From assembly GCA_023898465.1 (NCBI GenBank), contig CP060223.1, positions 768,001-832,000 on the forward strand: DNA of 64,000 nucleotides, read 5' to 3'. Shown piece after piece: positions 4,147 to 54,736 of this stretch. The position numbers were made by a program, and so were the translations under genes. How positions within the stretch are numbered: position 1 is the first letter of the stretch; every line of letters begins with the position of its first letter. The notes beneath the pieces were generated by a model. The model was not told the origin of the DNA. It did not search any database and saw nothing but the letters and a program-made list of their open reading frames with translations. Origin of the DNA: Candidatus Nomurabacteria bacterium (GTDB lineage Bacteria > Patescibacteriota > Patescibacteriia > HK-STAS-PATE-3).

Positions 4147-4722
4147 TTGACCCAGCGCAGAATTTATCAAAACACATACCCATACCATCTCACCACGGTA
4201 ACGAAAAACCGACGGTGGGCATTTCGAGATGTGAAACTAGCATGGAAATTGCACCAGGCAATTCTTGGCGCGTGTTTTGTTAAAGGTTACACCGCGCTGG
4301 CATTTTGCATATTACCGGACCATATACATTTGTTGGTTTGGAAGCATATCCCAGCGCGGGTAGGAGAACCCACGCTGGGCCTGGATGAAATACAAACACA
4401 ATTATTATTCCCCGAAGCCCAGCGCGCGTTCTCTAACGTGCGCGATAACAACCATGATGACATTTCATACTTAATGAAATCAATAAAAGGCACCTTTGCT
4501 CGATCAATTTCCTCCGGCCCCATCTGGCAACCCAGCTTCAATTCCCGCATCGTCGACTCTGATCAACGCCTCTACAACACACTGCAGTATATTCAATATA
4601 ATTATCGTAAACATAAACTACCCGCACACTATGGCCAAGCACCATATACCTTTCTTAATATCCCAAAAAGCATTTACAACATTGACCAAAACCGGTTTTT
4701 CTCGTACGATGGCAGAGATTGA
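4147..4722 (+). CDS. IS200-like / REP-associated tyrosine transposase (HuH Y1 transposase, RAYT-like)
   Basis: HuH motif LPDHIHLLV; downstream Tyr-containing helix LQYIQYNYRKHKL resembles the YIxxNPxK helix of TnpA_IS200/RAYT; 191 aa, a typical size. Confidence 0.65.
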   Translation: MTQRRIYQNTYPYHLTTVTKNRRWAFRDVKLAWKLHQAILGACFVKGYTALAFCILPDHIHLLVWKHIPARVGEPTLGLDEIQTQLLFPEAQRAFSNVRDNNHDDISYLMKSIKGTFARSISSGPIWQPSFNSRIVDSDQRLYNTLQYIQYNYRKHKLPAHYGQAPYTFLNIPKSIYNIDQNRFFSYDGRD

Positions 4723-6303
4723 TTGGACTTATGTATGCCGGCACCTCGCGCCAAAAAGACCACAAAGAAAAACCCGCCAAAGCAAGCGTCTGAAAAAATA
4801 GCAGAGGCTCAAATTATCATACCTGAGGCATCACCAGCGATAGAGATACCCAAGACTGCAACTCCACACTTCTTTGGATGGAAATTTTTTGTTGTGCTGG
4901 GAATTATCACTGGACTTTCCATGGGCTTTGCTACTTTTTCACGTGTCATTGATCCTCCAAATACCAATGGCGCAGTCGGCACCGAGCAACTCTCCCTACT
5001 CCAACACATTAATCAGCTGGTGGAGAATCAAAACAGACCTTTGCAAGGTGAGTCACGCGACCGGGTGAATATCCTCCTGCTGGGTATTGGCGGCGAAGGA
5101 CACGAGGGCGCCCTTTTAGCCGATACTATCATCCTGGCCAGTCTCCAACCCTCAACTGGAAAAATTGCACTGCTCTCTATCCCTCGTGACTTCTATGTTC
5201 CTATCCCGGGATATGATTGGCGCAAAATTAACAACGCAAATGCTTTTGGAGAAGTAGACGACTACCCGGGCGGTGGTGAACGCTTAACCGCTGATGTGCT
5301 CGAAGATATCTTAGATGTTGATATTCCTTATACTGCGAGAATCGATTTCAACGGCTTCATTCAAATGGTGGATAATCTCGGCGGCATAAGTGTTGATGTG
5401 GAAAAAGGCTTTGTCGACACACGATACCCAACCGAGAACTATGGGTATCAAACCATTCGCTTCGATGCCGGTCGTCAGACCATGGACGGCGAAACTGCAT
5501 TGAAGTTTGTCCGTTCGCGTAAAAGCACTTCTGACTTTGATCGATCGCGACGCCAACAACTCGTTTTACTTGCCCTCCGACAAAAGGCCCTCAACTTCGG
5601 CACTCTGATAAACCCTAGCCGCATATCGGACGTCCTCGGCAGTCTTTCAAGCAATGCACACACAAATATGGAACTATGGGAAATCCTGCGTCTCGCTGAA
5701 CTGGTTGAAGACGCTGACACCACAAACATAATCAATGTCATCCTGGATAGCAGCGCCGACAGTCCGCTTATGGATGATCGCACAACTGTTGACAATGCCT
5801 ACATCGTCCGACCAAGAAAAGGTTGGGATGACTGGTCAGAGCTCCAAGATATTGCCAACAACATCTTTCAACGGGAGGGTGAAGCACAACCCTTAACTGC
5901 TTCCGTGGTCGTACAAAACGGCACTCGTACCGTGGGTCTGGCCAGTGAAACTGCAGACATACTGGAGAGCTACGGACTCGAGGTTATCGATATCGGGAAC
6001 ACAAGCGTCCGTGGTTATACGCAAACCTATATTTATGATATTAGTAATGGTGAAAAGGCTATGGCATTAGCAGCACTGAGACAGGCCCTACCTTTTGCTC
6101 ATGTGTACTCTAAGACCCCGCTCTATCTCAACCCCGACGCACTACTGACCACAGACCTCAGCGGCCGAATTACCGAGATAGCAGTCGAATTACAACAAGA
6201 AACCCATCCTGACTTTGTCGTTATCCTAGGCGACGATACTGATCCTGATGTACTCTTATCTCACAGCAAGACAAGTAGCTCCTCACTGATAACCAGTCGA
6301 TAG
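4723..6303 (+). CDS. LytR-CpsA-Psr (LCP) family cell-wall polymer ligase
   Basis: N-terminal TM; LCP core RVNILLLGIGGEG...ADTIILAS...LSIPRDFYVPIPG...TARIDFNGFIQMVDNLGGISVDV...ETALKFVRSRK; LytR_C-like C-terminus. Start is TTG at 4723 or ATG at 4735. Confidence 0.8.
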   Translation: MDLCMPAPRAKKTTKKNPPKQASEKIAEAQIIIPEASPAIEIPKTATPHFFGWKFFVVLGIITGLSMGFATFSRVIDPPNTNGAVGTEQLSLLQHINQLVENQNRPLQGESRDRVNILLLGIGGEGHEGALLADTIILASLQPSTGKIALLSIPRDFYVPIPGYDWRKINNANAFGEVDDYPGGGERLTADVLEDILDVDIPYTARIDFNGFIQMVDNLGGISVDVEKGFVDTRYPTENYGYQTIRFDAGRQTMDGETALKFVRSRKSTSDFDRSRRQQLVLLALRQKALNFGTLINPSRISDVLGSLSSNAHTNMELWEILRLAELVEDADTTNIINVILDSSADSPLMDDRTTVDNAYIVRPRKGWDDWSELQDIANNIFQREGEAQPLTASVVVQNGTRTVGLASETADILESYGLEVIDIGNTSVRGYTQTYIYDISNGEKAMALAALRQALPFAHVYSKTPLYLNPDALLTTDLSGRITEIAVELQQETHPDFVVILGDDTDPDVLLSHSKTSSSSLITSR

Positions 6304-7640: not shown

Positions 7641-8167
7641 AATGCATTGTTGGACTAGGTAACCCTGGCACGAAATATGACGACACCCGCCATAACCTGG
7701 GCTTCGCACTGGTTGACGCAATTGTTGAGCACCTTGAGTTAGCGCCTTTTCAAGAGCAGAGTAAATTTAAAGCTGAGATGACCCGCAATGATGATCCTAT
7801 CCATCATTGGTTTTTCATGAAGCCACAAACCTACATGAATAACTCTGGTGAGGCAGTTGGTGAGTTTGTCCGATTCTATAAACTTCCGCTCAATGATTTA
7901 CTGGTTATTCACGATGATCTTGATTTACCTTTCGGTGAAATAAAGCATGTTGTTGATCGCGGACCGGCTGGACATAATGGAGTACAATCAATCATCGATG
8001 TTGTGGGCTCACAAGCTTTTCATCGTATCCGCATCGGCATTGGATCAAACAAGGAACTAGGCATTCCCTCTGAGGACTACGTTCTGCAAAAATTCAACAC
8101 TGAGGAAAAGCAAAAAATCTCCGAGCTACTCGAGCCTGTCCTCAACATCATTCTGAACTGGGCCTAA
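7637..8167 (+). CDS. pth: peptidyl-tRNA hydrolase
   Basis: MKCIVGLGNPGTKYDDTRHNLGF...YMNNSGEAV...HDDLDLPFG...GHNG. Confidence 0.9.
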   Translation: MKCIVGLGNPGTKYDDTRHNLGFALVDAIVEHLELAPFQEQSKFKAEMTRNDDPIHHWFFMKPQTYMNNSGEAVGEFVRFYKLPLNDLLVIHDDLDLPFGEIKHVVDRGPAGHNGVQSIIDVVGSQAFHRIRIGIGSNKELGIPSEDYVLQKFNTEEKQKISELLEPVLNIILNWA

Positions 8168-8195
8168 AGAAAAAACGCCAGTGTCAGTTTTCCTA

Positions 8196-8223
8196 CGAGT
8201 GCGGGGCTTCACACTCTTTTTTG
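8196..8223 (+). terminator. intrinsic terminator after pth
   Basis: GAGTG-CGGGGCTTCA-CACTC followed by TTTTTT. Confidence 0.5.
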
Positions 8224-8351
8224 TAGTACTTACCAACACTGGCGTTGCAGGTCCGGAGGGTCGTCCGGACAGAGAAGGACATCGGCCGCGCTTGGCGAGA
8301 AGGAAGCGAGCTTCAATGCGAGTCTCACTCAAGCAACGACCGACGTCCATG

Positions 8352-8423
8352 TGCCGTGGGAGGGATTCGAACCCCCAACCTTCAGATTACGAGTCAGATG
8401 CTCTACCACTGAGCTACCACGGC
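8352..8423 (-). tRNA. tRNA-Thr (anticodon CGU)
   Basis: Hand-folded: acceptor GCCGTGG/CCACGGC, D-arm GCTCAGTGGTAGAGC, anticodon loop CUCGUAA, T-loop GGTTCGAATCC; one U-U mismatch in the anticodon stem. Confidence 0.7.
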
Positions 8424-8579
8424 AGCTGTGTTGCGGGTCCTCAGGGCCTGCATGCTCTTCCCAGCGTACTGGACACTTTGGGCTGCAACACAACTTTTTA
8501 AGGACAGGCCGGGAAAATCCCGGGGGTGTTTATCTATGCACCTCTCGGTGAACTGATGGTATTTCACCTGTCCAAGATG

Positions 8580-8650
8580 AGCGGGAGACGGGATTTGAAC
8601 CCGCGACCTTCCGCCAGAGGCGGCTGCTCTGCCAACTGAGCTACGCCCGC
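8580..8650 (-). tRNA. tRNA-like gene with degenerate anticodon arm (possible pseudogene, identity unresolved)
   Basis: Good acceptor, D-arm (GCTCAGTTGGCAGAGC) and T-arm (GCGGGTTCAAATCCCGT), but the region between them is about 2 nt short and folds as CCGCC-UCU-GGCGG rather than a 5-bp/7-nt anticodon arm. Confidence 0.4.
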
Positions 8651-8796
8651 AAAAAAGAACGGACTAAGAATGTAGCGTATCCCCAAAAAGCTGTCAACCC
8701 TGTACCAGGCTTGGTGCGAGGTCAACCCTATCGTTCGCGAACTACGGAATCAAGAAAAAGGGAGATGCCATCAATGATGAACATCTCCCGAAGATT

Positions 8797-8868
8797 TGGT
8801 ACCTCCTGGAATCGAACCAGGGTAACCCGATTTTCAGTCGAGCACTCTACCAACTGAGTTAAGGTACC
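8797..8868 (-). tRNA. tRNA-Phe (anticodon GAA)
   Basis: Acceptor GGTACCT/AGGTACC, D-arm ACTCAGTTGGTAGAGT, anticodon loop CUGAAAA, T-loop GGTTCGATTCC. Confidence 0.75.
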
Positions 8869-8956
8869 GCTAGAGCGTGGCGGAAAGGCGAAGGACTTTC
8901 ACCAACTCACTGATCAAGACCAGCGTGTCCTCGGGGACGCCTTTCCAGAACAGATG

Positions 8957-9028
8957 AGGCGGGTCAAGGATTTGAACCTCGGAATCGCGGATTTGAAGAC
9001 CGCTGCCTTACCACTTGGCTAACCCGCC
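8957..9028 (-). tRNA. tRNA with apparent UCA anticodon (Trp-like anticodon arm; would decode UGA/UGG)
   Basis: Acceptor GGCGGGT/ACCCGCC, anticodon arm GCGGU-CUUCAAA-UCCGC (compare canonical Trp CCGGU-CUCCAAA-ACCGG), T-arm CGAGGTTCAAATCCTTG. Genes in the window use TGA as a stop, so the anticodon assignment needs tRNAscan-SE. Confidence 0.5.
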
Positions 9029-9050
9029 TTTCAACCTATAAGTTAGAGAG

Positions 9051-9124
9051 GCGCCCTGGAAGGAATTGAACCTCCGACATCTGGGTCCATAGCCCAGCGC
9101 TCTTCCGACTGAGCTACAGGGCAC
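9051..9124 (-). tRNA. tRNA-His-like (G-1:C73 present) with an AUG rather than GUG anticodon triplet
   Basis: 8-bp acceptor including G-1 paired to C73 (a His identity element), D-arm GCTCAGTCGGAAGAGC, anticodon arm CUGGG-CUAUGGA-CCCAG, T-loop GGTTCAATTCC. A34 is unusual and may be a variant or sequence error. Confidence 0.5.
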
Positions 9125-9133
9125 AACAAACGG

Positions 9134-9206
9134 TAGCGCAAGCAGGATTCAAACCTACGTTTCCACACAGAGAATGTGGCGACCTAAACCACTAGTCGAT
9201 TGCGCC
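9134..9206 (-). tRNA. tRNA, Glu/Gln-like (anticodon loop UUCUCUG, CUC?)
   Basis: Acceptor GGCGCAA/TTGCGCT, Glu-type D-arm GACTAGTGGTTTAGGTC, anticodon stem CCACA/TGTGG, T-loop GGTTTGAATCC; position 37 is not a purine, so the identity is tentative. Confidence 0.45.
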
Positions 9207-9311
9207 GGCAAATAGATTGCGACAGACCCTCTTCCGAGAGAGTGACGGCTCATCCTGCTATGAAAGAGGCCATCACAAAATGGTAAGCAATGTACTACAC
9301 CTGATCTAATG

Positions 9312-9386
9312 CGGCGCTGACAGGATTTGAACCTGCGAAACACTCGGCTGACCGCCGAGCTGCCTTAACCACTAGACTACAGCGCC
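9312..9386 (-). tRNA. tRNA, Asp-like (anticodon GUC; position 33 reads G)
   Basis: Acceptor GGCGCTG/CAGCGCC, anticodon arm CUCGG-CGGUCAG-CCGAG, T-loop GGTTCAAATCC. Confidence 0.5.
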
Positions 9387-9427
9387 AAAAAAAGAGCTGT
9401 CCGATGGTACCCCGGAAAATTACTTAT

Positions 9428-9464
9428 GTCAAGAAACCCCGCCTCATCATTTGACAAGGCGGGG
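9428..9464 (-). terminator. intrinsic terminator after the TonB-like gene
   Basis: Minus strand: CCCCGCCTTGTCAAATGATGAGGCGGGG followed by TTTCTT. Confidence 0.5.
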
Positions 9465-9470
9465 TAACTA

Positions 9471-10118
9471 TCAATTCAGCGAGAAACGGAAGGGAATGAC
9501 TGTCCAGACGGCCACCGCCCTATCACGCTGCTTCGCCGGACTAAAGAGCCACTGGAGTGCCGCAGCACATGCTGACTGATTCATCGACTCGAGCACCTCA
9601 CTCTGCACCACACTCGCTGCATCAACCGCACCGGTCTCGGTAATATGCACGCGCACCATCACCAAACCTTCCGCACCAGCCTGACGAGCCAAGTCAGGAT
9701 AGACCGGAGCTACCCGATGAATGACCTGTGGCGCTGTATCATAGGCCACAAAAGTCTCGGGTATTCCACTGTCCTGTCCGCTCATCACAATTGGCGGAGC
9801 AAAGGGATCGTAGGTCGTAGGAGCCAGCGTTTCTTCCAGACTGGCCATCTCGCTGATCTCAGCCTCAGCCGGCAAGTCAGGTCGCTGCACTTCTTGCGGC
9901 GGAGGTGGAACCACGAAGTCCTCCATGAACTCCACCGCGGTCATCACGCGCTCATGCAACTGATAAGGATGCGGGACATAGGGCGGCGAAAACCTGGCGA
10001 GCAAGAACAAGAGGGCAGTTGCTACCAGAAAACTCCAGCCTATGTCACGCCAGTAGTGCTGCTTCAGTAGGTAATGCTCTGAGGCACGGAAGCTTTCCAA
10101 TCCGATCACAAAGCACAC
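9471..10118 (-). CDS. TonB-family protein (N-terminal TM, Pro-rich linker, TonB C-terminal domain)
   Basis: TM WSFLVATALLFLLARF; linker PPPPQEVQRPDLP; C-terminus VYPDLARQAGAEGLVMVRVHITETGAV...SEVLESMNQSACAAALQWLFSPA matches the TonB_C fold pattern. Confidence 0.6.
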   Translation of the reverse strand: MCFVIGLESFRASEHYLLKQHYWRDIGWSFLVATALLFLLARFSPPYVPHPYQLHERVMTAVEFMEDFVVPPPPQEVQRPDLPAEAEISEMASLEETLAPTTYDPFAPPIVMSGQDSGIPETFVAYDTAPQVIHRVAPVYPDLARQAGAEGLVMVRVHITETGAVDAASVVQSEVLESMNQSACAAALQWLFSPAKQRDRAVAVWTVIPFRFSLN

Positions 10119-10441
10119 TCCTTCTCAACCCCGGGAGGTGTATGTAGCTGCAAAGAACTGACCAGAGCTAGGGAGGCTGATGCACAGCTGCCATGCATCC
10201 GATACAGTTATCTCTAGTGTACCCTATTCGGGAATAAAGAAAAAACTCGGCCACACAGCGTCGCCGGCAAGTGGAAAGCAATAGCTGATAAACAGTACTA
10301 CCTTCACTTGAAGCTACTTGGTTTGCATAGGAGGGGTCGCATTCCGTTCGCAACTTACCGACGACGCCATACTGCCGAGCATAGCGAAGCCACTTTCACT
10401 ACCATGAACGTAACGGGAAAAAATAGCATGCATTTCCCACT

Positions 10442-13400
10442 TTGTCAAGGGTGAAAGGAGAAGATATTGCGCATTTTTACTATTCGCGCTATACTAGATT
10501 TGCACTGCACAGTTGTTGCACATGCCTTTGTCTATTTCTTGGTGAGTACGTCGCTTTGACCCCTCCATCTCGACAAGCCCCGGATATTTCCGGGCGTATT
10601 TCGCAGGAGAGCCATATTGAGCTCTCTGGACTTACGAATAATTCAGCCAAAGCCTGGCTCATACTCCATATGCTCCCGAAAATAAAGGAGCATGGGACGC
10701 TTTTGTGGTTGGTGCGAAATGTTCGAGAAGCTGAAGAACTCTTTCATCAACTGCGCTTCTGGTCCGACACACTCAAGGTGCCGGTGAAGCTGACCGACCT
10801 CCAGCCAAATAACTTGGCTGCCCTGCAAGCAATGCGTAATACTGAGCCAGGAATTACCGTTGCCGCTATTCCCCTCCTTCACGAACCATTTCCCTCACCG
10901 ACTATTTTTGAACGAGCCACTCGTAATTTTGTTGTCGGACAAGAATGTGAATTAGTCCCCCTCCTCTCTCACCTTGCTTCAATCGGATATGAAAGTGATG
11001 CCCAGGCTTCAACGCCCGGTACTTTTGCGCGTCGAGGAGGCATTATTGATATCTATGCTCCGCATTGGGAACAGCCCTACCGGATTGAATTAGAGGGAAG
11101 CGCCATTTCTTCGATTCGCCCCCTGAATAGTAAAACAAAGCGCCTCGGCGCAGAGGTGACGAACGTAAAAGTGCTCCCCATCGAACTAAAAAATACAGCG
11201 ATGAGCGCTACAATTTTTGACTATCTTTCACGCGCACACACGCTCGTAGTCATGTCCGACCCTGAGGGTTTGGCTGAATTAGACCACGATTGGAAAACCA
11301 TAGAAGAACGATTTAAATCATTTCATCAACTTAGCTTCCATACCTTTGGCACGCGGGGCTCAGTCAATTTCGATTTCCAGTCGCCCAAACTTTATCACGG
11401 CTTACTCGATCAGCTAGGCCAAGACCTCAAAGCATGGAAGACTGAAAAATACGACGTCACTTTCATTACCACAAAAGCGAGTGAACTAAAAAAATACTGC
11501 ACGGCCAAGAAGCTCCCTCTACCAAACTTTCTTACTCCACCACCCGGCTATCGTATCTACGGCTGGATGAGTAAAGATGAAGGGAGAGTTGTCCTGACTG
11601 ACAACGATATTTACGGTGAAGAAAAAGATGAGGCGCCGAGCTCTGACTATTCGCGAGTGAGCGCATCAGCCTTTGTGGCCGAATTACGCCCGGGCGACTT
11701 TGTCGTGCACATGGATCATGGTATTGGACGCTTCACTGGCATGACGACGAATAAGATCGATGGCATTGCGAAAGAATATTTTGTACTCGAGTATGCCGAG
11801 GGCGACAAGCTCTTTGTGCCCGTCGATGCTGCAGAAAAAATTTCCAAATACTTCGGCTTAGCGCAACCAAAACTCCACCGCCTCTCTGGCAGCAACTGGT
11901 ATCAAGTTACTCACAAAATTCGCGAGGAAGCTTCAAAGATTGCTCAAGAACTTCTGCGGCTCTATGCTAAACGCGATACTACCGCCGCCGCTGCTTTTGT
12001 GCAGGACACCGCAGAAGAAAAAGCACTGGCTGAATCTTTCCCCTACGAATTAACTCCTGATCAAGCTCGGGTGATTAAAGAAGTAAGCGCCGACATGGAA
12101 AAAACGACTCCAATGGATCGACTGGTTTGCGGAGACGTGGGTTTTGGTAAAACTGAAGTGGCAGTCCGAGCAGCTATGCGGGCTGTCATGAACGGGAAGC
12201 AGGTAGCTGTGCTATCACCTACGACTATTCTGACCCAGCAGCACTTCGACACCTTCCGCAATCGTCTAGAGCACTTTAATGTTAAGGTGGAGCTTCTTTC
12301 ACGATTCCGATCAGAGAGCGAACAGGATCGCGTCATTCAAAAACTGCACACTCGGGACGTCGACATCATTATTGGCACCCATCGCCTCTTATCAGATGAT
12401 ATTAAATTCCGTGATCTCGGCCTCATTATTATTGATGAAGAACAGCGCTTTGGTGTAGCGCATAAGGAAAAACTTAAGGAACTACGAACTCAAGCGCATA
12501 TTCTCACCCTGTCCGCTACTCCAATCCCTCGTACACTCAACTTTGCCCTTTCTGGCTTACGCGACATCAGCGTTATTGAAACGCCGCCAGAGGGTCGCCT
12601 GCCAATTGAGACGCTTGTGAAGCCCTACGATGATAAGCTGGTCAAAGAGGCTATTATGCGCGAGCTCGATCGAGGAGGTCAGGCCTATTACCTCTATAAT
12701 AATGTCGAGACTATTGAGCTAGCAGCCAAACGCCTTGGTCGATTAATCCCGAAAGCCAAGATTGGCATCGCCCACGGTCAAATGGCAGAGGACGTGCTTT
12801 CAAAAGCCATGTCTGAATTTGATAATAAGAAGACAAACATTCTTGTTTGCTCAACGATTATTGAAAGTGGTCTAGACCTACCAAATGTGAACACCTTGAT
12901 TGTTGATAATGCACCGAAGTTCGGACTAGCGCAGCTCTACCAGCTCCGTGGTCGAGTCGGCCGTAGCAAGCGACAAGCCTATGCGTATTTCCTCTATCAT
13001 GCGGAGAAGTTAAATGATGCAGCTCGCAAACGCCTGCAGGCTCTACTAGAAGCAAAAGAGCTTGGCTCTGGTTTCCAAATTGCCTTACGTGACTTGGAAA
13101 TTCGTGGTACTGGAAATCTCCTGGGTCGCGAACAGCACGGTAAGGTTGCGGCTATCGGATTAGCCCTCTATACCCGACTACTCTCGCAAGCTATAGAAGA
13201 ACAAAAGAGTGGTGTTACCCAAAAGCCACTCCGTGAAGTGCAAATTGATCTGCCAGTGGAGATTGGCATTCCAAAACAGCTTGTGCCAAGCGAGCCAAAG
13301 CGCTTAAAACTCTATCAACAGCTAGCCGGATTAACGACTGAGAAAGATTTAGACCTATTCATGCAAAAAGAATTCCGCGGAGTAGACCTGCCTGACCCAC

Positions 13401-45136: not shown

Positions 45137-45823
45137 TTATGCAAAGAAAGTAATAGGCCGAAGATGTTGTGTGAAGTCTGCGCCCTGAAGATCTGACAAG
45201 GTGCTGGCGTCTCGTACATTCCATTTGCCAATTGCCGTACGTCGCAATGCACGTAAGTACGCGCCGCATCCCAAAGCCTCACCAATGTCACGCGCTAAGG
45301 TGCGGATATAGGTACCTGACGAGCACTCTACTTCAAGCTTCAGCTCTGGCCATGCATATGTACGGATACGTATGGCATAAATTTCTACTTCCCGCTCAGG
45401 TAGCTCTACTTCCTCGCCGCGCCGCAAGCGACGATAGGCTGGTACGCCACGGATCTTAATAGCCGAAAGCGCTGGAGGAATCTGTCGAATCGGTCCTTGA
45501 AACTTTTTTACCGCTGGCAGGATATCCTTCTTCCGTAATGGATGCAGATCCTCTGTTTCGGTAATCACTCCATCACAATCATCAGTATCACTTCGAGCAC
45601 CTAAGCGCAGGGTGGCCTCGTAGGTCTTAGTCGTATCTAGGGTAAGTCCACCCAAATGCTTTGTCGCGGCACGTCCCACTCCGACTATAAGCAAGCCAGT
45701 AGCAAAGGGGTCAAGCGTGCCAGCATGCCCCACCCGTTGCACTCCACTGGATCGTCGCACCCGGTTCACCACATCGTGCGAAGTCATACCTGCAGCTTTA
45801 TCGATAAGGAGAAATCCTTCCAT
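45137..45823 (-). CDS. truB: tRNA pseudouridine-55 synthase
   Basis: GFLLIDKAAGMTSHDVV...HAGTLDPFATGLLIVGVGRATK (catalytic Asp). Confidence 0.9.
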   Translation of the reverse strand: MEGFLLIDKAAGMTSHDVVNRVRRSSGVQRVGHAGTLDPFATGLLIVGVGRAATKHLGGLTLDTTKTYEATLRLGARSDTDDCDGVITETEDLHPLRKKDILPAVKKFQGPIRQIPPALSAIKIRGVPAYRRLRRGEEVELPEREVEIYAIRIRTYAWPELKLEVECSSGTYIRTLARDIGEALGCGAYLRALRRTAIGKWNVRDASTLSDLQGADFTQHLRPITFFA

Positions 45824-45947
45824 ACCCATAAGTGTACAGGGGGCACGTAACAAGTGACAACAAGGCATATTTGCTACTTTCCTGTTAGCCCTTGACCGCG
45901 CTTGACATCAGGTGTATACTGCTTGCGAGTTTTTGCCCGTACAAATT

Positions 45948-53261: not shown

Positions 53262-54032
53262 TCACTTGGCGGGAGAATTCTGTTTTTTGCCCACTAGCCT
53301 ATCCCCCAACTTATCCCAGTTCACCTTGAGCATGAGATAAACTGCCAACACGGAAAGTACAAGAGTGAGGACATTCGAGACAAGATTCGACTGATTTGAC
53401 CCGGCCACGGCTGAGGCTATATTAGTGTACTTACCAAAGGCAGCTAATCCGATAGTAATAACCATTTTACCGAGAGCAACCGGTATAAGCATGCGGATAA
53501 ATCCATAGCGCAAAAAACCAAGCGGCACGATAAAGATGTCGTCTGGAATTGGCGTTGCACCAATCAAGAAAAGTACGATGTAGACATACCAGCGCTTATG
53601 CTCGATCAAGCGCTTCAATACATCCAGATTTTTTTTGTACACATCATTCGTCAACTTCTGACCAAAGTAACCCAGGAAGTAGGAGGAACCTTCTCCTAAA
53701 CCAGCTCCAACCCCGGCAATAATTCCAAGGAGGAGAGGATTAATATCAGCCGCCGCAATTAGCACGATAACCACCGTATATGGTATCGGCACCACAATGG
53801 AGAAATTAGCTAAGAACGAAATGAGAAAGCCGCCTATGTAGCCCTGCGTTGCGCTAAGCGAAATCAACCAATCCCAAAAACGATTAAGTCCGTCACGGAC
53901 TGCTGGCACTCCGGTTACTAACCAAATGTAGGCGGCAATAACCAGCAGGGTGATAACGAGGAAGCGTTCTTCTTTACCAAATCGTACTCTCATATGCTTG
54001 AGGGATGTTTCCGATACTGCTTTTTTCGCCAA
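53262..54032 (-). CDS. DedA/SNARE-associated (TVP38/TMEM64) family membrane protein
   Basis: Multi-TM with the DedA signature region GKMVITIGLAAFGKY...; 256 aa. Confidence 0.65.
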   Translation of the reverse strand: MAKKAVSETSLKHMRVRFGKEERFLVITLLVIAAYIWLVTGVPAVRDGLNRFWDWLISLSATQGYIGGFLISFLANFSIVVPIPYTVVIVLIAAADINPLLLGIIAGVGAGLGEGSSYFLGYFGQKLTNDVYKKNLDVLKRLIEHKRWYVYIVLFLIGATPIPDDIFIVPLGFLRYGFIRMLIPVALGKMVITIGLAAFGKYTNIASAVAGSNQSNLVSNVLTLVLSVLAVYLMLKVNWDKLGDRLVGKKQNSPAK

Positions 54033-54664
54033 GCCGCAATATCAGCATGGTTTCCGGTGAGTAATTCTTTTGGCACGCGCTTGCCTTTATACACTTCCGG
54101 TCGAGTATACTGCGGGTACTCAATCTGATCTGGACTATGAGAAAAAGTTTCATCAACTGAGGAGGCGTCATCACCTAAAACACCAGGGAGAAGTCGAGTG
54201 ACCGCATCAATAACCACCATTGCCCCAAGCTCTCCTCCGGTTAAGACGTAGGGCCCGATAGAAATTTGCTGATTTACTAGGCTACGAATTCGCTCATCAA
54301 AACCTTCGTAACGACCAGAGACAAGTATGAGCTGATCCAGTTGTGCGAGCTCTCGCGCTTTTGCCTGGGTGAGAAATTGCCCTTGAGGTGAAAGCAGGAT
54401 CACCTGCTTCTTCTTTGTACGAGGAGGAAGTGTCCGCCCGGCCACTTTGCGAAGCGCCCGATCAATCGGCTCTACCTTCATGAGCATACCAGGGCCACCG
54501 CCATAGGGCTTATCATCCGTAGTGTGGTGCTTATCTGTTGCGTAGTCGCGGATGTTATGCACGCGAAGATCCAGCAGTTTTTTCTGCTGCGCCCGCTTCA
54601 ATATGCTTTCGTTACAATAATCCGACACCATGTTCGGAAAAATCGTCAGTACATCAATACGCAT
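53990..54664 (-). CDS. trmD: tRNA (guanine37-N1)-methyltransferase
   Basis: MRIDVLTIFPNM...YATDKHHTTDDKPYGGGPGMLMKVEPI...GGELGAMVVIDAV. Confidence 0.9.
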   Translation of the reverse strand: MRIDVLTIFPNMVSDYCNESILKRAQQKKLLDLRVHNIRDYATDKHHTTDDKPYGGGPGMLMKVEPIDRALRKVAGRTLPPRTKKKQVILLSPQGQFLTQAKARELAQLDQLILVSGRYEGFDERIRSLVNQQISIGPYVLTGGELGAMVVIDAVTRLLPGVLGDDASSVDETFSHSPDQIEYPQYTRPEVYKGKRVPKELLTGNHADIAAWRKKQYRKHPSSI

Positions 54665-54736
54665 GGGCCTATTGTAGCGCGAAGTGGCCTATCCTTCCAG
54701 TTGACATAAAGGCAATTCTCCAGTACCTCTAGAATT

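Follow-up and report, generated by a model that had tools for sequence, protein, structure and literature searches.

A tRNA gene array with altered anticodon arms between pth and mfd in a Candidatus Nomurabacteria genome

Results

The genome of Candidatus Nomurabacteria bacterium (assembly GCA_023898465.1), a member of the Parcubacteria group of the Patescibacteria, carries, on contig CP060223.1, a cluster of seven tRNA genes, five of which have anticodon arms unfit or unexpected for decoding. In the 64,000-nucleotide stretch analyzed here (positions 768,001 to 832,000 of the contig, hereafter the window), the seven genes follow one another on the minus strand, all in one orientation, at 8351–9386, between pth and mfd, with der, pth, tonB and mfd as neighbors. 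ARAGORN places these seven among 11 tRNA genes in the window overall, and Rfam RF00005 matches the same seven at 48.5–74.5 bits (E 1e-8 to 1e-16), against a gathering threshold of 29 bits, so that 7/7 belong to the family, with cloverleaves given by ARAGORN. An earlier reading of the letters alone, here called the original prediction, had folded seven minus-strand tRNAs by hand at this place; all seven are found by both programs, and the hand folds are borne out by the ARAGORN and Infernal registers and by minimum-energy folds.

The states of the anticodon arms were read from the ARAGORN cloverleaves together with the minimum-energy folds. The Asp-type gene (9311–9386, G73, anticodon GUC, 48.5 bits) has an arm of 19 nt instead of 17 and the loop CGGUCAG, in which position 33 is G; the minimum-energy fold of this arm is a 7-bp stem with a 5-nt loop. 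The Glu-type gene (9132–9206, anticodon CUC, 50.6 bits) has the loop UUCUCUG, in which position 37 is U and a U32-G38 pair is able to shrink the loop to 5 nt, as in the minimum-energy fold; its T loop is UUUGAAU, which puts U at position 56. These are the two genes for which non-U33 or non-purine-37 loops had been proposed. The His-type gene (9050–9124, 60.7 bits) encodes G-1, at 9124, and this residue pairs with C73 as in tRNA-His, while a loop of the normal 7 nt, CUAUGGA, presents the anticodon AUG instead of GUG; the identity pair and A34 had both been read correctly. The gene with a UCA anticodon (8956–9028, 63.7 bits), which we call Cys-type, combines U73 with a 3-bp D stem and a U31.U39 mismatch, and its anticodon arm folds as 4 bp with a 9-nt loop. 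tRNA-Phe(GAA) (8797–8868, 68.8 bits) is canonical and tRNA-Thr(CGU) (8351–8423, 74.5 bits) is canonical except for a U29.U41 mismatch, so the description of both as canonical holds for the former and nearly for the latter. Between these two lies a Gly-type, tRNA-shaped gene (8579–8650, GCGGGCG...CUCCCGC, U73, 52.5 bits) with a C6.U67 mismatch in the acceptor stem. Its anticodon arm is a closed hairpin of 15 nt, 5 bp with a UCU triloop, on the body of a tRNA-Gly, which agrees with the collapsed arm seen by hand.

A decoding-competent elongator has a 5-bp anticodon stem, a 7-nt loop, U33 and a purine at position 37. The Asp-, Glu- and Gly-type genes lack this combination, Phe and the His-type gene have it, and a single mismatch interrupts the anticodon stem of the Cys-type gene, as it does that of Thr. 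We scored by hand, from the cloverleaves and folds, the features inside the arm (stem pairs, loop length, U33, R37 and an anticodon fitting the body) and those outside it (stem pairs, U8, A14, G18, G19, U54, U55, C56 and A58). Failures amount to 12/63 in the anticodon arm versus 2/167 elsewhere (Fisher p = 4e-6). An encoded CCA is missing from each of the seven and present in each of the other window tRNAs (0/7 versus 4/4, p = 0.003), which are Val CAC, Leu CAA and two CAU genes, all with canonical loops. Among the tRNA genes of the window, those of the cluster form a class of their own.

A promoter scan found three sites where 0.6 are expected in shuffles. A sigma-70-type, promoter-like element with 10/12 matches (P1, TTGACA-17-TACCAT, 9404–9432, minus strand) lies upstream of the Asp-type gene, and another (P2, TTGACA-17-TACATT, 8669–8697, minus strand) precedes the Gly-type and Thr genes. 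After Phe, a terminator-like hairpin, GGGAGATG...CATCTCCC followed by TTTTT (8754–8789, minus strand), closes the five-gene unit; it was read directly from the sequence, its 14-nt loop being beyond the limit of the terminator scan. The Gly-type and Thr genes are separated by a 155-nt spacer (8424–8578, minus strand) that is conserved in the relative represented by contig L086, and they are followed by a 3′ trailer (8170–8350, minus strand) ending in a terminator hairpin, CGCCAGTGT...ACACTGGCG with TTTTTT (~8170–8244). Since promoters precede the Asp- and Gly-type genes and terminators follow Phe and the trailer, the cluster appears to be organized as two transcription units. The trailer, ~180 nt, is conserved and structured. 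Relative to L086 it has a 1-nt indel that disrupts the frame on both strands, which led us to reject it as coding sequence. Rfam scans at E up to 5 on 7900–10500 left the spacers, the trailer and the neighboring noncoding RNA (ncRNA, described below) unmatched.

Relatives were found through a protein database and contig look-ups, which yielded five array-bearing species besides that of the window. On contigs whose Pth is 59–86% identical to the window protein, der and pth are followed by a minus-strand tRNA array and then, where the contig continues, by mfd. L086 (Pth 86%) has a Gly-type gene with a 32-nt extended hairpin and Lys(CUU). L084 (66%) has Lys(CUU), a Gly-type gene that encodes CCA and whose loop is 17 nt, and a Lys(UUU)-like gene without a T arm, as well as, by eye, a His(GUG)-like relic. 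L088, L089 and L090 (60%) share Thr(CGU), a canonical Gly(GCC) and a Cys-type UCA gene, the last of which (L088 10651–10738, identical in L089 and L090) has a 20-nt hairpin in its T loop. L091 (59%) has an Arg(CCG)-like gene whose loop is 6 nt, Lys(UUU), and a Gly-type gene with a 45-nt arm and CCA. The seven genes of L092 (61%, 1607–2272) are Thr(UGU), two altered-arm Gly-type genes, a Cys-type gene with anticodon ACA and hence A34, a class I gene with the amber-type anticodon CUA, Arg(ACG), and a Cys-type “GUA” gene with G33. Gly-type arms in the relatives span 15–45 nt, and loops in their arrays range from 3 to 45 nt. On two contigs of a sister clade (Pth 54–55%), the interval from pth to mfd holds a conserved ncRNA and not one tRNA gene. 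The array is therefore confined to a single clade, in which it keeps its position while its gene content varies. A scan of a genome collection with Pth gave a best match of 47% identity, with neither synteny nor arrays.

No orthologue of the five-gene block Asp-Glu-His-Cys-Phe was found in any of these relatives. L086 keeps a relic of the 3′ end of tonB and not the five upstream genes, so the block was either lost in L086 or gained in the lineage of the window.

The cluster sequence itself is real and not an assembly error, because an independent Logan assembly of SRR12358675 matches the window over 12.5 kb save for one base. This single-nucleotide polymorphism (SNP), at 9079, falls in the variable loop of the His-type gene, where the window has AUGUC and Logan contig L001 the more usual AGGUC. 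The original prediction had named sequence errors at the unusual positions as a way in which it could fail; none is seen, and the two assemblies agree at the anticodon arms. An artefact, of sequencing, assembly or fold register, would be easiest to entertain given that the source is a metagenome-assembled genome and that contigs are often broken by tRNA repeats (Logan L002 and L003 stop at the Thr gene). Two assemblers, however, agree over 12.5 kb with the only difference outside any anticodon, the registers from ARAGORN and Infernal equal those folded by hand, and the equally odd array of L088 is 100% identical across three separate samples (L088/L089/L090). We put the chance of an artefact at next to nil.

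We next consider how the genes have changed since the window and L086 diverged. Third codon positions of der are 40% identical between the two, which is saturation. Over the same comparison P2 is 90% identical, the Gly-type body ~84% (a hand count from the alignment, the anticodon arm being unalignable), the 155-nt spacer 87%, the Thr/Lys gene 89%, and the trailer 75–82%. The L086 orthologue of the Thr gene has the same acceptor and T arms and the anticodon CUU. The proximal ~100 nt of the spacer, directly upstream of the Thr gene (8424–8525, minus strand), show two differences only from L086, at a distance where synonymous sites are saturated.

Seven Gly-type bodies from six species were aligned with the third arm left out. 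In this alignment 99.1% of cells are paired, compensatory double changes occur at 8/16 pairs, 0/500 shuffles are as good, and C2:G71 and U73 are invariant. A usable anticodon loop is missing in 6/7 of these genes; in these six the third arm always folds as a closed hairpin, very variable in length, whose minimum-energy form has either a loop of 3–5 nt or a long extended stem. For the Thr/Lys family the figures are 96.8% of cells paired and 9/21 pairs covarying, with an anticodon that shifts among CGU, CUU, UGU and UUU; both CGU genes, of the window and of L088, have the U29.U41 mismatch. Three compensatory swaps are found in the acceptor stems of the Cys-type genes of the window and L088/L092. 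A neutral pseudogene was considered for the Gly-type/Thr unit and set aside: with 75–90% identity to L086 versus 40% at third positions, and with compensatory changes, this operon is not neutral debris. The Gly-type and Thr genes, together with the spacer, trailer and promoter, are under purifying selection. The window Gly-type gene is neither a suppressor nor a neutral pseudogene, and it belongs to a conserved family of tRNA-shaped RNAs that appear to have given up decoding.

The main rival is plain decay of the five-gene block, for which recent pseudogenization is possible. In its general form this account holds that the cluster, or at least the block, consists of redundant or acquired copies decaying neutrally, with odd anticodons that arose at random and do nothing. 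It would explain why the block has no orthologues in relatives, lacks encoded CCA and adjoins a lone tonB of likely horizontal origin, why the only SNP in 12.5 kb sits in the His-type gene, and why the relatives include obviously broken members; C34 isoacceptors (Thr CGU, Glu CUC, Lys CUU) are, moreover, generally dispensable in reduced genomes. Set against this, the stems and the T and D loops of all seven genes are near perfect and the defects gather in the anticodon arm, which speaks against neutral decay over a long time, since random decay should hit all helices. The Gly-type/Thr operon is conserved far above neutral sites with compensatory changes, consensus-like promoters and terminators are kept, and a genome of ~1 Mb rarely retains 1 kb of junk. 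We regard neutral decay as a serious but rather unlikely account of the cluster.

The identity of the UCA gene bears on what it could do. It folds as a usual class I cloverleaf of the 7/5 kind, in which the variable loop has 5 nt, the D stem has 3 bp and position 73 is U. In IMG/VR, the pattern of its D and anticodon arms, in which any base was allowed at position 34, matches only tRNA-Cys(GCA) genes, and to one phage tRNA-Cys(GCA) from that collection it is 87% identical, the anticodon arms differing by G34-to-U and A39-to-U. Two hallmarks of tRNA-Cys, U73 and the Cys-type D arm, are present, and the anticodon is UCA instead of GCA. The body thus appears to be that of tRNA-Cys, neither Trp nor Sec. 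The anticodon UCA reported earlier stands, and the description of its arm as Trp-like does not. A Trp-type opal reader needs G73, where this gene has U73, and a Gly(UCA) identity is ruled out by the Cys-type body. ARAGORN labels the gene “SeC”. tRNA-Sec has a 13-bp acceptor plus T domain (8/5 or 9/4), a 6-bp D stem and a long variable arm, and we rejected this identity on the 7/5 domain, the 3-bp D stem, the 5-nt variable loop and a best Rfam family of RF00005. The “SeC” label derives from the anticodon alone, as does the “Arg” label, for Arg(UCU), that ARAGORN gives the Gly-type gene; the body of the latter is a tRNA-Gly body (GCGGGnG...CnCCCGC, then U73), with a T arm almost identical to that of the canonical tRNA-Gly(GCC) of L088.

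Introns, of group I or of the short bulge-helix-bulge type, were also considered behind the long arms and rejected. Group I introns are excluded by size, the inserts being only 2–28 nt, and ARAGORN with introns allowed gives Ile, Tyr and Gly on Gly-type bodies, an inconsistent set. Rfam scans of the window and of the relatives' arrays returned no intron families. Although group I introns do occur in tRNA genes of Patescibacteria (PMC13011429), the cluster is unrelated to them: the inserts are far shorter, and their removal restores no matching anticodons.

TGA is a normal stop in the window. The 45 long open reading frames (ORFs) end in TAA (20), TGA (13) or TAG (12), and der, dprA and the GDPD gene are among those ending in TGA, as had been stated. 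Translated with table 11, Mfd, TopA, UvrA, SMC, RelA/SpoT, SufB and other proteins are complete, and the suggested look for in-frame TGA in conserved window genes finds none interrupted. The only same-frame ORF pair divided by TGA consists of an IS200-like Y1 transposase ORF and a full-length LCP gene; LCP proteins of the relatives have ~500 aa, without a transposase extension. That ORF (4147–4722, plus strand, IS200/IS605-like with the HUH-type motif PDHIHLL) ends in TGA directly before the LCP gene and in frame with it, is uncalled in the Logan annotation, and has a counterpart in L084, where a Y1_Tnp gene lies in the corresponding neighborhood. Recoding of TGA (tables 4 and 25) was rejected, with TGA a normal stop and conserved genes uninterrupted; because of this, the UCA tRNA is no sign of an altered genetic code. 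Codon usage in the window (CAC 158/385 of His codons; TGY Cys 113; GGY Gly 741) calls for a G34 tRNA-His, a tRNA-Cys(GCA) and a GGY-reading tRNA-Gly elsewhere. The cluster does not supply G34-type decoders for CAC, TGY and GGY, and we infer that canonical His, Cys, Asp and Gly decoders exist elsewhere in the genome.

The members could nevertheless be working decoders, the Cys-type UCA gene as an opal suppressor inserting Cys or another amino acid, His(AUG) reading CAU, and the Asp and Glu variants decoding in spite of G33 or U37. A UCA anticodon on a Cys-type body recurs in L088, CUA and ACA anticodons are present in other arrays, and the His identity pair G-1:C73 is intact; charging of tRNA-Cys(UCA) by CysRS variants is known (PMC7609411). 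The ordinary use of TGA as a stop (13/45), with conserved window genes free of it in frame, weighs against a suppressor. The stem of the Cys-type gene is weakened by U31.U39, its L088 counterpart has the 20-nt T-loop insert, and the window has neither selC*-type features nor their partner genes (criteria of PMC7609411). By the usual rules of decoding, U34 would also read UGG, a Trp codon, and G33 with a loop closed by C32-G38, like 3-nt loops, is incompatible with A-site decoding. As far as its sequence goes, the gene could conceivably be a weak Cys-inserting opal suppressor, though this is unlikely; as an account of the cluster, decoding is in our estimation very improbable. The choice originally offered for the UCA tRNA, suppressor or pseudogene, was too narrow, as the relatives show a variable array across the clade.

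Discussion

The explanation that we prefer, and to which we would give about an even chance, is that the locus is a clade-specific accessory tRNA array, maintained and evolving by birth and death, that includes non-decoding tRNA-shaped RNAs. Its members would descend from tRNAs of the usual kind, specific for Asp, Glu, His, Cys, Phe, Gly and Thr/Lys. Two polycistronic precursors would arise from the two consensus-like promoters and probably be cut out by RNase P and RNase Z, and the CCA, which is not encoded, would have to be added after transcription. The tRNA bodies would be kept while the anticodon arm is freed from the constraint of decoding. Phe(GAA) and Thr(CGU) probably do decode, perhaps redundantly. 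The Gly-, Asp- and Glu-type RNAs are most likely unable to read codons, because their anticodon hairpins are closed or mis-sized. His(AUG) and Cys-type(UCA) would be supernumerary paralogues with odd anticodons that are by-products of relaxed or diversifying evolution and matter little, if at all, for coding. We infer the expression, the processing and the lack of decoding of these RNAs from their sequences.

What such RNAs might do would depend on the tRNA body, and we consider three roles in order of preference. First, they may be aminoacylatable carriers or regulators kept off the ribosome. The Gly-type family keeps the acceptor identity set G1:C72, C2:G71, G3:C70 and U73, and two species (L084 and L091) keep an encoded CCA despite their aberrant arms. 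The tRNAOther of Bacillus cereus and the staphylococcal tRNA-Gly, both taken up below, offer precedents. Second, they may be spares or decoys against anticodon-targeting nucleases. Third, the tRNA shapes may serve as processing punctuation that frees the conserved spacer and trailer RNAs, an idea that fits the operon of the window and L086 and not the arrays with spacers of just 7–19 nt.

The second of these roles is also the core of a rival account, in which the anticodon loops are under diversifying selection to evade or absorb anticodon nucleases of phage, host or competitor. The changes fall at positions 33, 34 and 37 and in loop size, with bodies intact; all three GUN-type members (Asp with G33, His with A34, and the L092 “Tyr” with G33) are without a U33-G34 step; and array content turns over rapidly among species. 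For phage tRNAs, mutations in the anticodon loop are predicted to give escape from VapC, PrrC and colicins D and E5 (PMC10264068), and tRNA arrays have been proposed as anti-defense systems (PMC12803027). Yet nuclease, toxin or phage genes are not seen near the array, closed loops of 3–5 nt and arms of 45 nt cannot rescue translation, and no similar array was found in phage collections. As an account of the cluster, counter-defense seems to us distinctly improbable.

A more far-reaching reading treats the Gly-type genes at pth-mfd as a family in which the GlyRS acceptor set is kept and a hypervariable hairpin replaces the anticodon arm. These RNAs, with CCA retained in some species, would form with the disabled paralogues a pool excluded from the ribosome and serve as aminoacyl carriers or nuclease decoys, the third arm being a fast-evolving specificity or escape module. 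This reading, built on sequence comparison, is tentative and in our view somewhat unlikely as a whole. Several points weigh against the carrier role or the maintained array more broadly. Bacterial GlyRS normally needs C35 and C36, which counts against glycylation of the forms that lack an anticodon. The comparative sample is small, at six species, and the covariation among Gly-type bodies could partly date from the time when the genes were still canonical. The five-gene block, without an orthologue in the relatives found, may simply be decaying, and the broken members of the relatives (the truncated T arm of L084 and the 20-nt T-loop hairpin of L088) fit plain decay.

A non-proteinogenic tRNA-Gly is used by Staphylococcus for peptidoglycan bridges; it keeps a normal anticodon, and its binding to EF-Tu is weakened. 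The Gly-type family shares with the staphylococcal tRNA the acceptor set given above, whereas its own anticodon hairpin has been destroyed. The window shows no Fem-type transferase.

Arrays of supernumerary tRNA genes that spread horizontally have been described (PMC4758250, PMC8421152). The cluster shares with them a dense run on one strand (7 genes in 1.04 kb), supernumerary status, patchy distribution, variable content and its own promoters. By the definition in PMC4758250, a tRNA array unit has at least 20 genes at a density of at least 2 per kb; the cluster reaches the density and, with 7 genes, not the number. It also differs in that its place on the chromosome, between pth and mfd, is constant and passed down in a single clade, with no adjoining mobile-element genes, and in having mostly altered anticodon arms, where the Anabaena L-array has 23 functional tRNAs (PMC8421152). 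The locus resembles the supernumerary arrays but is far shorter, vertically fixed and dominated by anticodon-disabled members.

Other known systems were compared as well. The tRNAOther of Bacillus cereus is a predicted tRNA that is retained and has no function in translation (PMC3399842). It is a single gene flanking a genomic island, while here we have a family within an array, with a hypervariable third arm, known from its predicted structure and its conservation. The selC* tRNA-Cys(UCA) shares U73 Cys identity and the UCA anticodon with the window gene, but is of the 8/4, Sec-like kind with a long variable arm and SelB*/CysRS* partners, in contrast to a 7/5 gene with a weakened anticodon stem (PMC7609411). 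A selC* system was rejected on the ordinary 7/5 cloverleaf, on neighbors that are der, pth, tonB and mfd, and on the absence of the partner genes from the window, and the cluster is not of the allo-tRNA kind either (PMC7609411). The UGA readers of codes 4 and 25, tRNA-Trp(UCA) and the tRNA-Gly(UCA) of Gracilibacteria and Absconditabacteria (PMC8629427), have in common with the window gene the anticodon and, for a candidate-phyla-radiation host, the setting; the window gene has the body of neither a Trp nor a Gly tRNA, and TGA serves as a stop as often as is normal. Nuclease-evading phage tRNAs likewise have mutations concentrated in the anticodon loop on intact bodies, but they stay decoders, which several cluster members most likely cannot be, and the cluster is chromosomal and not phage-derived (PMC10264068). 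Full-text literature on unusual tRNA genes of Patescibacteria yielded no description of such arrays.

The analysis removes a false lead, as a UCA tRNA in a candidate-phyla-radiation genome invites the claim of a code change, and the evidence opposes one. Annotation pipelines would label genes of this kind tRNA-SeC, tRNA-Arg or tRNA-Pyl, which would distort tRNA censuses and the inference of genetic codes in reduced genomes. The comparative pattern suggests that very small genomes may keep tRNA-shaped RNAs for purposes other than decoding. If these RNAs were indeed charged, or were nuclease decoys, they would represent a new class of tRNA-derived function in episymbiotic bacteria.

Searches for a source outside the clade turned up no phage or plasmid-like one. 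In IMG/VR, the Cys-type pattern found canonical Cys(GCA) only and the Gly-, His- and Asp-type patterns found nothing, and blastn against 50,697 phage records gave just generic single-tRNA similarity of at most 83%. A metagenome scan with the UCA pattern gave 0 matches, in a collection evidently without the JGI samples that hold L088. The same kind of scan with the Gly-type expansion pattern gave 14 matches, none from the array-bearing clade; most are short-insert tRNA genes, several of them in dense tRNA arrays, and unrelated to the Gly-type family.

The gene adjoining the array is a lone TonB_C gene (tonB, 9471–10118, minus strand). The nearest homologues of its product, at 54–59%, belong to Eisenbacteria-like genomes, where they sit in ExbB-ExbD-TonB operons; one of these genomes was assembled from the sequencing run that also gave the window. 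This suggests that tonB was acquired horizontally. Co-transfer of the five-gene block with tonB was considered and rejected, as the Eisenbacteria-like TonB operons have no tRNAs nearby.

Between tonB and mfd lies the conserved, structured ncRNA of ~140–180 nt (window ~10202–10379, minus strand), with a TTGACA promoter of its own. Both the clade with the array and its sister clade have it (L086 2929–3106, L084 ~11590–11770, L091 ~4480–4680, L092 ~2330–2510 and L100 ~5700–5900). A long closing helix and an invariant unpaired GCGACCCCUCCU, resembling an anti-Shine-Dalgarno sequence, characterize the predicted structure; compensatory changes occur at 30/51 predicted pairs, and no Rfam family matches at E up to 5.

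Two enzymes that modify tRNA are also encoded in the window, the pseudouridine-55 synthase TruB (45137–45907) and the m1G37 methyltransferase TrmD (53990–54688). The His-type gene carries G36-G37, the dinucleotide recognized by TrmD. Finally, a GC-rich contig with small packed ORFs and a phage-like appearance (L109 996–1195 and L103 6164–6363), met in the metagenome scan with the Gly-type expansion pattern, holds two tandem tRNA-like genes. Both genes have the loop GACUACA, with no U33 and with C37, and the T arm of one is the same as that of the window Gly-type gene.

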